Positions 9,001 to 15,000 of a stretch of DNA of 64,000 nucleotides are shown one piece after another. Within the stretch, counting starts at the first letter, position 1, and each line of letters begins with the position of its first letter. Location of the stretch: assembly GCF_048403405.1 (NCBI RefSeq), contig NZ_CP183131.1; one strand, written 5' to 3'. Source of the DNA: Escherichia coli. Its GTDB lineage: Bacteria > Pseudomonadota > Gammaproteobacteria > Enterobacterales > Enterobacteriaceae. The position numbers were made by a program.

Positions 9001-12000
9001 CACAGCAATTCGTAAACTGTTCGGTTGGGCTTGGTGATCGGCTTATTCGGAGTGAATCCATGTTTGTTCTGGAGGTACAGCGCTACCGCGCCACTTCTGG
9101 ATTCTCCGTAATAGCAATGAACGAAGATCTGATCGATACCGCTACCAACCAATCCATCCAGGAAGGTGGACAGCTTTTCAGCCTGGGATGAGTCAATGTA
9201 AGAGGCGTAATTCATCCGGAACGCTGCCTTCATCGTGTGGATGGTGTTCTCAGAATAGCCGCCGTCATAGAAGCTATCGCGGTACAACTGCCCCCACTGT
9301 CCGAGAGCGGCAGGGGACTTGTCTGGGTCAGTTATGGAGATCATGGCCGCACCGGGAACCGGCTCCAGTCTTTCGGCCTCCGCTTGACTAATGAAAAAGA
9401 CTTTTTTGCTAAGCATGTCCCATCATCCCCTTACAAGGATGTGTTGCGAGTAGCTCACGCGCCTGACTTTGCCCCTCTTGAGTATCTACAGGAGCGGTCG
9501 TATACACACCTCCATGCCGCAAGTCCACAATACTGGTCCGACAGCAAGAACCTACGTTCTGAACTTTATTGTCCGAATCCAAACCAGCAAAAGTATGGCA
9601 CGGTCCAGGGAATGGTTTCCTGCAAATAGAGCAGCGCTCAAAGTTCTTATCGAGGATTCTCTTTAAAACTTTCTCAAATTTGTTTTTGTTTAACATCGAG
9701 TTCTCCACACAAAGTTACTGGCCGAGCATCCCAGCCAAGGTGGTCTGCTGGCCTTCGCTACAAGGTGCAAATCCGGCAAAAGCACCGGCATTAACCTTGA
9801 GCTCATCAAAGCGTCCATCGGTGTCCCGGTAGTACACCTTACGTTTTCCAATTCCACCTTCGAGGTTTGCGGCCAACCAGGCGATCACTGCATCAGCATC
9901 GTTCGTAACTGATGCTCCCTGATCCAGATCGATAAGTACCAGGTGGGTGTCCGTCTGGAGTGCCACTTCAAAGGTCGCTCTTACATCAAAAATCACTGGT
10001 CGCGCTCCTTGTAAAAAGTGGGCATTCAGCACCACCTATCCTATTCCAAAAACTCTACTTTTTCAAAGATACATTTTAATAAGTAGAACAACAGCAAGAG
10101 GAACTCAAATTTATTTACCGTAATTATCATAATTACGGTAATACGGTAATTTTACAGATTTGGATGGAATGGTATAAGATGTCTCGCTGGAACATACTTG
10201 CTGAAAAAACGCTTAACAACGATAGTGAAAACATCATGTACAGGTGCGAGAGATAATATGTATAAGAGCCTTGAAGATCTGATGGCGGGTATTTACGAGA
10301 TGGCAGCGCCAGATGGCATCATCTGTAACGAGGTTTCCAAATTCCTTGCGGCCAACCAGGTCAAGCCGGAAGACATAAGCTCTGGGATCTGGTTTTTCCT
10401 GTGGCTGAAATCAGCTCCCAAGGATGCGAAGCCAATCCAAAAAGAAATCCCCGGATTTGGAGTTGTTCTCAACATGCCGACTTATGGCGGAACGCTCAAC
10501 GAAGCAATCACAGGGTTGATCGAGAACGAGTGCCGTCAAATAGAGCTCGCTGAGGGACATCCGAGCCTTGAGGCTTGGGTTGAATCAGTATTAGCCGGTC
10601 GAGATGACGGAGAGGAAAATGAAGCTGCGGCCAATATCGTGGATCTGCTTAATGGGTGTCACGACCTACTGGATACAGCAATAATCAATTACCTTTTTAA
10701 GGTGGGAAAAATCAACGAGCAAGAGATTTTGTCGCTCATCTATTATGGAGAGCTATGTGACCACTCTCTTGTCGGTACGCCTTTTTCAACGTTACATATC
10801 CCGAGTGAAAATAACGTCCACGAACGTAACATCATCCCCATTAAAAAAGGAGCCAGTTAGGCTCCTTTTTGTTACTCAGGGTTTGCTTTGAGAAACAACT
10901 TCATTCCAAGTATGCAGCACCTTCGATAGGTGCTGATGCTTTCTGGTGAAGTCCTTATCATCCAAGAGTGCTTTAAATGGCGCGTTCAGGTCACTGCATG
11001 TGACGTTCTTGCCGATCACAGACAGGGTATCCTGGAGTGATCCACCAGCAGCATCAAGCCCCATTCTATCGACGGTCTCACTACTCACCATTGCCTGGAC
11101 AACATTGGTGAATGCCTTTGAGTTGAGCTGCTCAACGCTCAGGGCTGTATTGCATTTCTGCTCAACCGCTTGCTTGTACTGGATGGTGTACTTTGCAGTG
11201 ATAGGTGACATGGTGTTCATCGCAAGTATGTATGCGTCTACCTCACTGGTCGGTAATGTCGCGGCATAGACTGACGAGCATGATGCGGCTGCGGCCATTA
11301 TCAAAGTTATTACCTTCTTATTCTTCATTTCTCTGAAATCCCCCTTTAAAATATGGAGCTACAACTCATTTGTACCAATCATAATACTATTGATTTCCAA
11401 AAGTATCTCTCTCTACTGACTCTATGATGGCTCGCCTTCCAAACACTTGGCCGCTGGCGGCGGCTGGGCCAACGCCAGAGCCTGATCCACACTATCATCC
11501 GCCTGAAAAAAATCTCATTACCTCTGACGGATAAAGAAACAGATTTCCCCCTTTGGCAAAAAACAGATACCAAACAGAAAAAGCCACAGAAAAAACACCT
11601 GCAACACACACTTCAAATCTATTTCTTGCAGAGAAATACTTGTAGTGCTTTTTTTCGTATCTCGGGGCTCTCATTTTGACTAGATTTTTCAATGTCAACC
11701 AAAGAAAGATAACCCCAGTAGGAAGGATAACTATCACAACCCCAAAGAAATAAATTGTGTATATAATAAAATCAAACCAGTTATTGATTTCCATAAGCCG
11801 TCCCCAATGCTGCGCCAATAGCAGAACCATGTGAGCCGTATTTAATCCCTGGATTCCTCATTAGCTCTCTTTAACTTTAATATTTTCCTTAGATTTAAGT
11901 ATCCATAGATTCCTGAGAACACTCCATACCCCCCCCAAACACCAACGGACAGATATAAGGCGAATTTGCTTAGAGGCCCATTCACATAATTTAATAAAGC

Positions 12001-15000
12001 GAACACTGCAATTCCTATAAAGGCTCCAGCTAAGGAAGGTGCGAACAAGTTCCTGATATGAGATCATCATATTCATCCGGAGCGCATCCCAGAGGGACAT
12101 CATGAGCCATCAACTCACCTTCGCCGATAGTGAATTCAGCACTAAGCGCCGTCAGACCCGAAAAGAGATTTTCCTCTCCCGCATGGAGCAGATTCTGCCA
12201 TGGCAGAATATAACCGCTGTCATCGAGCCGTTTTATCCCAAGGCGGGCAATGGCCGACGGCCCTATCCGCTGGAGACCATGCTGCGTATTCACTGCATGC
12301 AGCATTGGTACAACCTGAGCGACGGTGCCATGGAAGATGCCCTGTACGAAATCGCCTCCATGCGCCTGTTTGCCCGATTATCCCTGGATAGCGCCCTGCC
12401 GGATCGCACCACCATCATGAATTTCCGCCACCTGCTCGAGCAGCATCAACTGGCCCGTCAATTGTTCAAGACCATCAATCGCTGGCTGGCCGAAGCAGGC
12501 GTCATGATGACCCAAGGCACTTTGGTGGATGCCACCATCATTGAGGCACCCAGCTCTACCAAGAACAAAGAGCAGCAACGCGATCCGGAGATGCATCAGA
12601 CCAAGAAAGGCAATCAGTGGCACTTTGGCATGAAGGCCCACATTGGTGTCGATGCCAAGAGTGGCCTGACCCACAGCCTAGTCACCACCGCGGCCAACGA
12701 GCATGACCTCAATCAGCTGGGTAATCTGCTTCATGGAGAGGAGCAATTTGTCTCAGCCGATGCCGGCTACCAAGGAGCGCCACAGCGCGAGGAGCTGGCC
12801 GAGGTGGATGTGGACTGGCTGATCGCCGAGCGTCCCAGCAAGGTAAAAACCTTGAAGCAGCATCCGCGCAAGAACAAAACGGCCATCAACATCGAATACA
12901 TGAAAGCCAGCATCCGTGCCAGGGTGGAGCACCCGTTTCGCATCATCAAGCGGCAGTTCGGCTTCGTGAAAGCCAGATACAAGGGGCTGCTGAAAAACGA
13001 TAACCAACTGGCGATGTTATTCACCCTGGCCAACCTGTTTCGGGTGGACCAAATGATACGTCAGTGGGAGAGATCTCACTAAAAACTGGGGATAACGCCT
13101 TAAATGGCGAAGAAACGGTCTAAATAGGCTGATTCGATGTGTTTGCGGGAAAAAAATCGGCCCAGATCCGCGAAATTTTAATCAGCGAGTCAGCTTGGGA
13201 AGAAATGACCTGCTTATTCGCACCTTCCCTAACGGAAATCCAAGCAGATATACTGCTCTATATTTTAAACCGGTTTTTTTCATCTTATTATTTATCTATA
13301 TGTTTTGAAATCTTATCTACAATGGATGTAGTATCCATATTCATTATCCTCCCTGCTTTTTCAATCAGAAACTCAGCTTCATTTGTTATGTTCTTTGACT
13401 CTTCATTAATAATGTCAATGATAGTTTCTAGTGCGATTCCATACTCACCCACATCAATAAATTCTTGCACTTCTATACTTTCAGATTCAGAAAACGAATC
13501 AGACAGCACCATAAGCAAAAGATCTAGCGTGGATTCAATTTCTCTATATTCATTTTTCATTTTGGATTCCTTGGTACGTTTGTTGGAAAACCTGAAACAA
13601 TATCACCATTAGATTCTTGTATTACACGAACATTAATACCTTCTTTAACTGCCTCTGCAATAGTCCTACCACCGCGCCCAGCCTTTCGAGAAACATTTGG
13701 ATCGGTAGCTATATCGGAAATGACGTGCATAATTTTTTCATCAGACCAACTTTGAGGAAACTCACTTTTTCCAGGCTTGCCTGTTCCTGCTCGATGCCCT
13801 CCACCAGTGGCGTCACCATCAAGAATATGCTTACGTCTCTGGGAACTGGCTAGGTCTACAAAATCATCAGCCGTATTTTTAAAAGCGCGTTCCGCAACAT
13901 TCCCTAGCGCCTTATAGTTGCCAGGCAGGATAATCCCAGCAGCAAAAAGCCCCCCGGAAATCCACTTTTCTCTTGAGGTCGCACAATCACTGGTGATGGT
14001 CTTGAAGGTGTCATAGGCGTCCCAAGCGCTCAAGGCAAAGTCTATGGCAACATAAGCCCCCAGAAGAAGCGGCACAAACTCCCCTGTTGGATCTGCATTG
14101 CCTATCGGGTTGCTCAGCGCATAGGCATAGGTGTTAATCCCACCAGCCAGCCCAATCGGGTCACTGGTGATGTAACGCCCGGTATTCGGGTCGTAGTAAC
14201 GCCGCCAGTTGTAGTGGAGCCCGGTCTCCGCGTCGTAATACTGTCCTGGGAACCGCAAATTGAAGGTCGGCCCCTGAGTGGTGATGCTGGCCTTACCGAA
14301 CGGGCTGTAGCTCGCCTTCCAAACCACTTGGCCGCTGGCGTCGGTTAGCGCCTTCGGGGTGCCCAGATGATCGACGTGGACTTGATAGGTCTGTCCTGAC
14401 TGAGCAAAGCTCAAGGGGGTGCCATCGAGCCAGATATACTCCGCCAGCACGTCTCCAGTGGCTGCGTCCAGCTCCTCGATGAGGTTTCCTGCCAAGCCGT
14501 AAATCAGTAGGCGGGTCTGGCCGTTTAGGGTCTTAGTTACACGCTGATCCAGATGGTTGTAGGTGTAAGCTGCTGTCACTCCAGCGACCGTTGCGGCCAC
14601 CAGCCGGTTCTGGCTGTCATAGGTGAAGGTATCCGCCCCCTGCTTCGTCAGGTTGCCATTGGCGTCATAGCTTCTGGAGGTTTGCCCAGTCTTCACCAGC
14701 CAGTTGTTCATGTAGTTGATGGTGTAGCTTTGGCTCAGGCCATCGGTCGTGATCGAGGTCCTGTTGCCGGTGGCGTCATAGCCATAGCCCAAAACGCCAT
14801 AGAGCCCCTCAGCAGAGGTGATGCGGCCAACCGCGTCATAACCGAGTGACTGATTGACTGATGAGCTGAGATTGTCGTCTATGGCTGAAATCAACGAGTC
14901 TGGCGTGTACCGATAGACCAGCGAATGCACTCTAGTAGCGTCGATGCCGGTGACTCGGTAATTGAGATCCAAAGAGCGACTTTCTGAAATGCCGTTCCAT

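Follow-up and report, generated by a model that had tools for sequence, protein, structure and literature searches.

Probable orphan Rhs immunity genes in the rhs2 locus of a type-2 IncC plasmid, one of them split by a recent ISKpn26 insertion

Orphan immunity genes behind Rhs toxins

In the displaced-tip model for Rhs loci of the Enterobacteriaceae, such as those of E. coli and Salmonella, toxin tips are displaced one after another and older immunity genes are left downstream of the tip in use. Serratia marcescens Db10 carries, immediately behind rhsI, orphan Rhs immunity genes that stand alone, one of which has been proven protective (PMC10539506). Membrane-directed Rhs toxins are exemplified by the Tse5 (RhsP1)/Tsi5 pair of P. 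aeruginosa, in which the pore-forming Rhs C-terminal fragment inserts into the inner membrane of the target cell and depolarises it, and the immunity protein counters this effect (PMC10684867).

The 64-kb stretch of E. coli DNA analysed here (64,000 nucleotides, hereafter the window) is a type-2 IncC (A/C2) plasmid backbone, whose rhs2 locus very probably contains two orphan Rhs immunity genes, orf80 and orf99, the former inactivated by a recent insertion of ISKpn26. Like SMDB11_2280 and 2281 of Db10, which follow rhs1-rhsI1, orf80 and orf99 are two small co-oriented genes behind a toxin-immunity pair in use. The Db10 orphans keep no toxin part and are homologous to in-use immunity genes of Rhs tips in other strains, and in both loci the assignment follows the same route, from a homologue that stands beside a toxin elsewhere. 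The Db10 proteins neutralise cytoplasmic NADase tips and are encoded in a chromosomal T6SS cluster, whereas those of the window are predicted membrane proteins linked to glycine-rich tips and belong to a conjugative resistance plasmid on which one of the two genes is broken by an IS. As in displaced-tip rhs-CT/rhsI modules, relics in the window (11430-11463 and 11781-11840) mark module borders; classical orphan modules, however, keep a sizeable rhs-CT fragment with its toxin domain, whereas here 19 codons are left for orf99 and nothing for orf80.

The rhs2 locus and its interrupted gene

Gene content and order of the locus are those of the type-2 reference plasmid pR55, unlike those of rhs1 plasmids (rhs1 and rhs2 as defined in PMC7652850 and PMC6872532). 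On the minus strand, rhs2 with its EndoU tip is followed by mafI, orf80, the tipB relic, orf99 and a relic of about 30 nt of an orphan rhs-CT. The rhs2 gene (13557-17819, minus strand) encodes a full-length Rhs protein of 1420 aa with DUF6531, RHS repeats, an RHS core and a C-terminal EndoU nuclease tip (Pfam matches RHS_repeat, 2.7e-79, DUF6531, RHS and EndoU_bacteria); it occupies the position of WP_014342219.1 in pR55 and, with its EndoU tip, is the toxin in use at this locus. Its stop overlaps by 4 nt the start of mafI (13288-13560, minus strand; WP_000787563.1), the cognate 90-aa EndoU immunity gene of the MafI family (NCBIfam immunity_MafI, 5.7e-18, score 64.5 bits, cutoff 31). The order in pR55 is Rhs-MafI-WP_000750746.1-WP_011872911.1-WP_000791469.1, with the same accessions for mafI, orf80 and orf99 as in the window. 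While rhs2, mafI and orf99 are intact in this plasmid, orf80 is interrupted by a mobile element of 1195 bp (12034-13228, plus strand), present in a single copy in the window and oriented opposite to orf80.

Isoforms of an insertion sequence are by convention (ISfinder practice) about 95% or more identical at the nucleotide level. Compared with a copy annotated as ISKpn26 (locus L024), the element shows 99.75% identity, and compared with IS5A of E. coli K-12 (MG1655) it shows 92.4%, so that it is ISKpn26 and IS5 sensu stricto is ruled out. It has the features of the IS5 family: a size of about 1.2 kb, terminal inverted repeats of about 16 bp (GGAAGGTGCGAA(C/T)AAG, 15 of the first 16 positions matching), a single ORF for a DDE transposase of 326 aa (12102-13082, plus strand; Pfam DDE_Tnp_1, 1.7e-35, and DUF772, 3.3e-21; NCBIfam transpos_IS5_4, 7e-110, score 366.8 bits, cutoff 140) and a 4-bp Py-T-A-Pu target duplication. 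The duplicated CTAA stands as a direct repeat at 12030-12033 and 13229-13232, the left-hand copy reading TTAG on the coding strand, that is, codon L18 and the first base of A19. CTAA is listed among the IS5 target tetranucleotides within the Py-T-A-Pu consensus (PMC5493358). An earlier sequence-only reading had described an IS5 insertion with CTAA duplication; the family and the duplication stand, and the name has to be changed to ISKpn26.

In silico removal of the element and one CTAA brings back, as that reading had claimed, an 80-aa minus-strand ORF of 243 nt (MKKTGLKYRAVYLLGFPLAGAFIGIAVFALL...), read from 13283 to 13233 and then from 12033 to 11842. The restored protein is 100% identical to WP_000750746.1, which type-2 IncC plasmids, pR55 among them, encode in their rhs2 locus. 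The excised stretch of 1409 nt is colinear and 100% identical in 35 complete E. coli plasmids, and 331 PLSDB plasmids match it with a coverage of 80% or more; since it is conserved and WP_000750746.1 is annotated there, orf80 is not a chance ORF. The comparison with IS-free homologues that had been proposed thus finds such homologues, with both flanks conserved at 100%. Plasmids of the rhs1 type have 96.5% nucleotide identity in the Rhs N-terminal and shell region and are without orf80 and orf99; pSH696_135 and pEC14-1b, both rhs1 plasmids, have only 44 nt of the excised query in common (window 11420-11463). The region in which rhs1 and rhs2 plasmids diverge ends on its right-hand side at position 11463. 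The relic at 11430-11463 (minus strand) preserves the opening bases of an orphan rhs-CT situated downstream, repeats the rhs core at about 14310-14349 and encodes ...ASGQV; at its position, Aeromonas loci (L007-L009) run on into complete orphan rhs-CTs.

The insertion point lies between codons L18 and A19, within a GFPLAG motif that is invariant in the four closest homologues. According to ORF calls and the excision, the 5' fragment (13233-13283, minus strand; codons 1-17, MKKTGLKYRAVYLLGFP) reads into ISKpn26 to give a 33-aa product. The 3' fragment (11842-12029, minus strand) extends from the rest of codon A19 to D80 and the stop, and holds the greater part of helix 1 together with the NGPL turn, helix 2 and basic tail of a predicted helical hairpin (AlphaFold2 model, H4-35 and H40-79, mean pLDDT 91). 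Because the first 17 codons are cut off from the rest, no full-length product is possible, which agrees with the previous description of a split small membrane-protein gene, the membrane hairpin being a prediction.

Judged by sequence comparison, the insertion is recent and private to one plasmid among the collections searched. The ISKpn26/orf80 junction is absent from all PLSDB records and complete E. coli genomes searched, including about 350 PLSDB plasmids with orf80, none of which has the insertion; the nearest plasmid differs from the window in nothing except the IS, the flanks on both sides are 100% identical to those of intact plasmids, and orf80 is intact in pR55, a reference plasmid of 1969. 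The wording "recently inactivated" used in the sequence-only reading is therefore appropriate.

Toxin-linked relatives of orf80 and orf99

An exhaustive HMMER search yielded an orf80 family of 22 representatives, with the pattern GFPxxG ... NGPxS ... W(G)xxGxxxG. Its distant members are 31-43% identical to orf80, and five of the seven sampled (P0021, P0022, P0025, P0027 and P0033) lie directly after an Rhs C-terminal tip or overlap it. P0021 (6001-6237) follows an orphan Rhs-CT (4450-5952) in locus L012, P0022 overlaps its Rhs-CT by 14 nt (L013-15), P0025 starts 13 nt past the tip (L016-17), P0027 and the tip overlap (L018), and P0033 is positioned after a tip end (L021); the remaining two, P0029 and P0030, have no adjoining Rhs gene. 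A further case, found via the toxin and outside the seven sampled contexts, is that of Kistimonas asteriae (L033), where an Rhs gene (13-3537) is directly followed by an orf80-family gene (6e-29 against the family profile).

All the tips upstream of orf80-family genes belong to one glycine-rich family, tipA, of which three full-length tips are 50-56% identical in pairs (E 1e-42 to 1e-58), and where these loci also contain tips of another kind (tipB, tipC, EndoU, HNH-like), the genes downstream of those tips are different ones. No orf80 homologue of at least 70% identity was found adjoining a toxin. These gene neighbourhoods support the view that the orf80 family is a toxin-linked Rhs immunity family, and the search for cognate tips in other Rhs loci that the sequence-only reading had suggested leads to tipA. 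The relatives follow tips, whereas the window copy itself follows mafI, and it is this position, in place of one behind its own tip, that would make orf80 an orphan; tipA is absent from all 64 kb of the window (tblastn).

The second gene, orf99 (11495-11794, minus strand; 99 aa, WP_011872911.1), is intact, has 35% G+C and encodes two hydrophobic segments. In loci L028-L030, a 78%-identical homologue has 14 nt in common with the end of the gene for a 1394-aa Rhs, at the same site of a divergent IncA/C-like backbone, and the orf99 homologue of L012 overlaps the end of an Rhs gene to the same extent. A tblastn search of the 64-kb window with the C-terminal 200 residues of the Rhs from L028 recovered the 3' end of this toxin, tipB, at 11781-11840 (minus strand; YGSHGSAIGAALGTAYGNQ*). 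The relic comprises 19 codons, is identical at 18 of 20 aligned positions with the stop counted (E 2.8e-6), and overlaps the orf99 start with its stop in the register seen in L028 and L012; tipB has no other tblastn match in the window. This context supports the view that orf99 is an Rhs immunity gene that has lost its toxin by deletion, so that within the window the cognate toxin is absent for both genes. The proposal of an orphan-immunity cluster that includes the gene at 11495-11794 gains from the tip-linked relatives, the absence of tipA and the reduction of tipB to a relic.

The toxins targeted by orf80 and orf99 are probably membrane-active. Neither tipA nor tipB matches a Pfam family above threshold or a PDB chain by sequence (Tse5 included), and the sole Pfam match of tipB is Gly-zipper, below threshold; that the tips themselves act on membranes is a guess from their glycine-rich, hydrophobic composition. 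What they share with Tse5 is the proposed mode only, with no detectable sequence similarity. Homology to Tse5-like pore-forming toxins is not borne out by the PDB result, and the mode stays an analogy.

Alternative readings and proposed origin

It is possible, though on balance doubtful, that orf80 and perhaps orf99 are functionless, decaying hitch-hikers of the EndoU-mafI cassette and that the IS hit was neutral. IncA/C plasmids often have IS elements and transposons inserted within rhs or close to it (PMC9709138), and rhs1 plasmids manage without either gene. A C8 run within orf80 (11929-11936, minus strand; coding G8, codons W50-G52) varies in length and is a hot-spot for frameshifts: its length is 6-9 in other assemblies and 9, hence frameshifting, in the finished plasmid pBK32533. 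The frameshifted 74-aa form (P0008) occurs on 539 contigs and the 80-aa form on at least 999, and 41 of 352 PLSDB plasmids (12%) differ within the 88 nt across the run. Close copies of orf80 have dN/dS values of 0.56-0.91, estimated from only 8-21 substitutions, and together with the run variation these fit a gene for which selection on the plasmid is slight, if there is any. The same 88 nt are nevertheless exact in 311 of the 352 plasmids (88%), the 80-aa frame is preserved in homologues at 93%, 85% and 71% identity, and in Aeromonas (L006, L007) the mafI-orf80-orf99 trio persists despite toxin loss, the EndoU tip being down to its last 46 residues. Against the homologue in use in L028, moreover, orf99 has a dN/dS of 0.044, which indicates strong purifying selection. 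It should be noted that hitch-hiking bears on present usefulness only, and that an origin as immunity genes stands either way.

It is very improbable that the two genes encode accessory membrane proteins of Rhs2, acting as holin-like helpers of release or export, and not immunity proteins. Both are co-oriented with rhs2 and closely spaced behind it, Rhs2 bears a signal peptide, and the model of orf80, a small hairpin of two helices that ends in a basic tail, resembles class II holins; to our knowledge, IncC plasmids have no T6SS, which would leave room for an accessory export role. Family members, however, track the toxin tips (tipA with orf80, tipB with orf99) and not the Rhs shell or N-terminus, occur behind orphan rhs-CT fragments that are devoid of the N-terminal export region (L012, L016), and are both missing from rhs1 plasmids with the same N-terminal and shell region. 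Nor does orf80 match a holin in PHROGs, where its only hit (E 0.051) is to a family of unknown function, and the assignment as a holin was discarded. No lysis genes were noted among the ORFs adjoining the rhs2 locus.

An insertion selected for because ISKpn26 alters the expression of orf99 or of a further backbone gene is scarcely credible: IS5 does activate the adjacent operons glpFK, bgl and fucAO (PMC5493358, PMC11894529) and a 91-aa minus-strand ORF (12030-12305) exits the left IS end toward the 3' part of orf80 and orf99, but the insertion struck coding sequence and no regulatory region, is private to a single plasmid with no sign of selection, and is accompanied by no minus-strand promoter-like sites in 11300-13700, where hits did not exceed the shuffle control.

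If orf80 and orf99 are, as we favour, orphan Rhs immunity genes, the ancestral state would have been the arrangement rhs(tipB)-orf99 that the divergent IncA/C-like locus L028 has at this site. In the type-2 IncC lineage, an incoming EndoU-mafI-orf80 cassette would have replaced the tipB tip, with orf99 and the final 19 toxin codons left behind. By analogy with immunity proteins that are located in membranes elsewhere, the two proteins would reside in the inner membrane, each neutralising the matching toxin delivered by a competitor, and the plasmid host would be protected from toxins for which its plasmid has no gene. ISKpn26 has transposed into the CTAA at codons 18/19 of orf80, duplicating it. 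Expression of orf99 may have been lowered by this event, as the gene now lies 1.2 kb farther from any upstream promoter. The ISKpn26 hit is nothing unusual, and loci of this kind are well known, but the locus that it struck reveals the nature of two previously unnamed plasmid genes, orf80 and orf99.

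The insertion element and the locus it interrupts

The element lies on the plus strand at 12034-13228 and spans 1195 bp between inverted-repeat ends of the form GGAAGGTGCGAA(C/T)AAG, with copies of a CTAA target site at 12030-12033 and 13229-13232. Its sole transposase ORF (12102-13082, plus strand, 326 aa) is of the DDE type and matches Pfam DDE_Tnp_1 (1.7e-35) and NCBIfam transpos_IS5_4 (7e-110). CTAA is a recorded IS5 target and fits the Py-T-A-Pu consensus (PMC5493358). With 99.75% identity to annotated ISKpn26 copies, as against 92.4% to IS5A of E. coli K-12, the element is identified by sequence comparison as ISKpn26, a member of the IS5 family, and the name IS5 in the strict sense is ruled out. 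On the minus strand within ISKpn26, a 91-aa ORF (12030-12305) runs antisense to the transposase gene, exits the left end of the element in the direction of the orf80 3' piece and orf99, and takes its stop from the CTAA duplication.

Removal of the IS and one CTAA copy in silico fuses 13283 to 13233 with 12033 to 11842 on the minus strand and restores an 80-aa ORF, MKKTGLKYRAVYLLGFPLAGAFIGIAVFALLNYVNGPLSKFALYLSVGVWGGYGVFSGIYGYLNLRKILKLKRANEESRD, here called orf80. The insertion point falls between codons L18 and A19, within a GFPLAG motif that is invariant in the four closest homologues, and the 5' piece of the gene now runs on into the IS to give a 33-aa product. The genes beside it are all intact: rhs2 (13557-17819, minus), encoding an Rhs protein with an EndoU tip, its MafI-family immunity gene mafI, and a 99-aa ORF, orf99 (11495-11794, minus). 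The 1.2-kb insertion may lower orf99 expression. Matches in a promoter and terminator consensus scan of 11300-13700 did not exceed the shuffle control, and the scan found no minus-strand promoter.

Colinear copies of the excised 1409-nt stretch, at 100% identity, are present in 35 complete E. coli plasmids, and 331 PLSDB plasmids match 80% or more of its length; the hosts of the latter include Klebsiella, Salmonella, Escherichia, Citrobacter, Providencia, Vibrio and others. In the intact plasmids orf80 is annotated as the hypothetical protein WP_000750746.1. The type-2 IncC reference plasmid pR55, compared through its RefSeq copy, has the same gene order (Rhs, MafI-family immunity protein, WP_000750746.1, WP_011872911.1, WP_000791469.1), whereas the rhs1-typed plasmids pEC14-1b and pSH696_135 have only window positions 11420-11463 in common with the query and carry another tip followed by a single 145-aa gene (rhs1 and rhs2 as defined in PMC7652850 and PMC6872532). 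The pR55-like order and the divergence from the rhs1 plasmids identify the window as a type-2 IncC backbone, with the whole cassette inside the rhs1/rhs2-variable stretch. The same backbone carries at 4072-5118 (plus strand) a 348-aa ORF resembling the signalling domain of methyl-accepting chemotaxis proteins, an odd passenger for a resistance plasmid, which sister plasmids annotate as a HAMP domain-containing methyl-accepting chemotaxis protein.

The insertion is recent, and no second instance of it has come to light so far. Neither PLSDB nor a set of 5,426 complete E. coli genomes contains the IS/orf80 junction, and none of the 352 PLSDB plasmids carrying the surrounding segment is interrupted at the insertion site. 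In the closest match, K. pneumoniae plasmid NZ_CP129693.1, window positions 1-25000 are covered to 95% at 100% identity, the uncovered 5% being the 1195-bp IS. The sequence-only reading had described an IS5 copy with its CTAA duplication splitting a small, recently inactivated membrane-protein gene. The split is confirmed by reading 11300-13700 and by the excision, and comparison with IS-free homologues recovers the restored ORF, intact and identical, in other plasmids; the private junction and the identity of NZ_CP129693.1 apart from the IS bear out the recent inactivation, and the label IS5 gives way to ISKpn26.

The orf80 family and its proposed toxin tip

Neither orf80 nor orf99 has a meaningful match in Pfam, NCBIfam or PHROGs. 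A word-indexed search with orf80 returned close relatives only, namely an Aeromonas form (93% identity), two metagenomic forms (85% and 71%) and several frameshifted versions, and an alignment of the four closest sequences found no relative among 100,044 species-representative genomes. An exhaustive HMMER scan of 1.84 billion representatives delineated a family of 22 clusters with the common pattern GFPxxG ... NGPxS ... W(G)xxGxxxG. The AlphaFold2 model of orf80, built on the family alignment, is a helical hairpin (H4-35 and H40-79, mean pLDDT 91) with basic residues at each end, as expected for a predicted small protein of the inner membrane whose two termini are cytoplasmic.

Gene context was examined for seven distant members of the family. 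P0021 (6001-6237 in locus L012) lies downstream of an orphan Rhs-CT at 4450-5952, P0022 overlaps an Rhs-CT by 14 nt (L013-L015), P0025 starts 13 nt past a tip (L016-L017), P0027 overlaps its tip (L018) and P0033 is found downstream of a tip end (L021); P0029 (L022) and P0030 (L019-L020) have no adjoining Rhs gene. The upstream tips form a single glycine-rich family, named tipA here, with the motif ...GAVIGGGxNAYxQY...GAGVTAAQNxITGSCxSVS...SNALxG... and, among three full-length examples, pairwise identities of 50-56% (E 1e-42 to 1e-58); the tip family also has members in Vibrio parahaemolyticus, V. alginolyticus and Halomonas. A search of species-representative genomes with the tipA alignment yielded one locus, in Kistimonas asteriae, where an Rhs ORF at 13-3537 (at least 1174 aa) ends in tipA and the gene directly 3' of it belongs to the orf80 family (6e-29 against the family profile). 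The search for cognate toxin tips in other Rhs loci, suggested from the sequence alone, has in this way placed tipA beside five of the seven sampled orf80 relatives and beside the Kistimonas gene.

The tipA-linked relatives share only 31-43% identity with orf80, so tipA is a putative target of the plasmid copy. The decisive evidence for the identity of orf80 is gene context. No tipA coding sequence was found anywhere in the 64-kb window. Taken together, the tipA-adjacent family members and this absence make orf80 best understood as a member of a toxin-linked immunity family that is present here without its cognate toxin. A holin function, which the two-helix hairpin and basic tail might suggest, is rejected: the family tracks a toxin tip, and rhs1 plasmids have a near-identical Rhs shell without the gene.

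Three JGI metagenome loci (L003-L005) hold an array of tips and small genes. In L003 (1-2721) a tipA-like tip precedes an 84-aa membrane protein (at 9.4 bits not a clear orf80-family member) and an orf99 stub; beyond these lie a further orphan tip rich in glycine, two small proteins (a membrane protein of 79 aa and a Cys_rich_CPCC protein of 65 aa) and an orf80 homologue of 85% identity. Judged by gene order, this array shows that orf80 also moves in immunity arrays without EndoU linkage.

The orf99 gene, the tipB relic and a proposed history of the cassette

The product of orf99 (WP_011872911.1) has two hydrophobic segments, and the gene has a G+C content of 35%. In L012 its homologue overlaps the end of the main Rhs gene, and P0072, 78% identical to orf99, shares 14 nt with the 3' end of a complete Rhs gene (1394 aa) in L028-L030; the tip family so placed is here termed tipB, and the Rhs C-terminus in L028 reads ...NYESHGSAIGAALGTTYGNQ*. 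Synteny between L028 and the window (65-70% nucleotide identity) takes in the rhs shell, the integrase region and, upstream of rhs, a 241-aa gene; L028 is accordingly best described as a divergent IncA/C-like backbone whose rhs, at the same site, is a third allele. In L028 and L029 (GCA_024449875.1 and GCA_054228985.1, locus coordinates 215-13200), rhs with tipB is followed by orf99, an orphan rhs-CT stub and genes unseen in IncC, and this backbone may represent an undescribed relative of the IncA/IncC family.

Between orf80 and orf99, window positions 11840-11781 (minus) encode YGSHGSAIGAALGTAYGNQ*, which agrees with the end of the L028 Rhs at 18 of 20 aligned positions (90%, E 2.8e-6). The stop of this relic overlaps the orf99 start in exactly the register seen in L028 and L012, and homology between the window and L028 picks up at 11831 and continues to 11434. 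The in-register relic and the resumed homology identify orf99 as the putative immunity gene of tipB, a tip deleted except for its last 19 codons. Between the window copy and the in-use L028 copy, dN/dS is 0.044, which shows that orf99 is protein-coding and under purifying selection. The sequence-only reading had proposed an orphan-immunity cluster downstream of the Rhs gene; its observation stands except for the name of the IS, and its interpretation now has the support of independent context evidence and of a toxin relic.

Two other accounts of orf99 and its relatives were discarded. Derivation of its C-terminus from the rhs core, suspected from tblastn matches in frame with the next rhs-CT, is contradicted by the reading frames, as the conserved piece is orf99's own 3' end, always just upstream of the next orphan rhs-CT. 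P0081, which looked like an orf99 homologue (61% identity) in a locus lacking orf80, arises from assembly errors: L031 and L032 (Logan assemblies ERR8282773 and SRR28345612) are IncC rhs2 loci with several homopolymer frameshifts, which produce both the spurious P0081 and the apparent loss of orf80. Some database "variants" of these small genes are thus assembly errors.

Just downstream of orf99, 11430-11463 encodes ...AAASGQV, which repeats in direct orientation a short piece of rhs core at about 14310-14349. The two copies bracket the tip and immunity cassette, and position 11463 is the right-hand limit of the rhs1/rhs2-variable stretch. The downstream copy is probably what is left of an earlier orphan rhs-CT, and the repeat could serve as a recombination substrate. 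At the same point, Aeromonas loci L007-L009 have complete orphan rhs-CTs with small membrane immunity genes of their own. Of the EndoU tip, Aeromonas L006 and L007 (CP118990.1 and JAPCIT010000024.1, 7056-8590) retain just the final 46 residues, joined to the end of a NERD-domain ORF; mafI, orf80 and orf99 persist intact there as an immunity-only island. Behind this island, L007 has an orphan rhs-CT whose tip is short and glycine-rich, along with a 93-aa membrane protein.

The simplest history would comprise three steps. An ancestral IncA/C-type plasmid would have had rhs(tipB)-orf99 with an orphan rhs-CT behind it; an EndoU-mafI-orf80 cassette would then have taken the place of the tip, with orf80 presumably toxin-less before its arrival because it starts 4 nt after mafI; and later deletions would have trimmed the downstream orphan.

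Selection, proposed action and significance

Close copies of orf80 give dN/dS values of 0.56-0.91, calculated on few substitutions. The gene also contains a C8/G8 run (11929-11936, minus, codons W50-G52) whose length varies from 6 to 9 across assemblies and is 9 in the finished plasmid pBK32533. A run of 9 leads to a frameshifted 74-aa product (P0008). This product is present on 539 contigs, of which many carry the name Vibrio cholerae; the 80-aa form is present on at least 999. The Aeromonas-type and 85%-identical lineages have frameshifted versions too (P0017 and P0018). The run could be a mutational hot-spot, a source of sequencing error or a site of phase variation, the last being weakened by exact conservation of the run region in 311 of 352 PLSDB plasmids (88%). 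The dN/dS values, the run variation and the frameshifted forms fit weak selection on orf80 in its present hosts, and the IS insertion may therefore be without phenotype.

The products of intact orf80 and orf99 would be lodged in the inner membrane, where they would counter toxins of the tipA and tipB types entering from outside; the pairing would resemble that of Tse5, an Rhs toxin that acts on membranes, with its immunity protein Tsi5 (PMC10684867). Both genes also resemble the stand-alone orphan Rhs immunity genes of Serratia Db10, for one of which protection has been shown (PMC10539506). The membrane activity of tipA and tipB is putative, being read solely from their composition. Neither tip has a family in Pfam or a solved relative among PDB sequences, so no toxin fold can be named. 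As for export, the Rhs2 N-terminus (approximately 17729-17819) bears an apparent Sec signal peptide, MRSRPSLLLMRNLRSLAVVVLATLPCVAFAQ, and a Pfam scan of Rhs2 (13557-17819) found DUF6531 and no PAAR domain. IncC plasmids are not known to carry a T6SS.

A far-reaching extension of this proposal, which we regard as improbable, is that type-2 IncC plasmids, which are spread worldwide, carry two membrane immunity proteins that guard any recipient host against the glycine-rich Rhs membrane toxins of aquatic competitors, with the G8 run as an on/off switch and IS insertions as a sign of relaxed selection in clinical Enterobacterales. If this is true, inter-bacterial defence would join the known benefits of IncC carriage, and two new toxin-immunity family pairs would be defined.

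Orphan immunity genes behind an Rhs/immunity pair and struck by an IS are of a kind already well known; what is new is the proposed assignment of two unnamed type-2 IncC genes to two undescribed toxin-immunity family pairs. The insertion itself is routine plasmid wear, useful as a natural orf80 knock-out and a lineage marker. WP_000750746.1 and WP_011872911.1, "hypothetical protein" genes on hundreds of type-2 IncC multidrug-resistance plasmids, can now be read as putative orphan Rhs immunity genes, each with a toxin-tip family absent from Pfam as its proposed partner, and the content of the rhs1/rhs2 variable region used for IncC typing is thereby accounted for. This gives rise to the testable idea that the plasmid may shield its host from foreign Rhs toxins.
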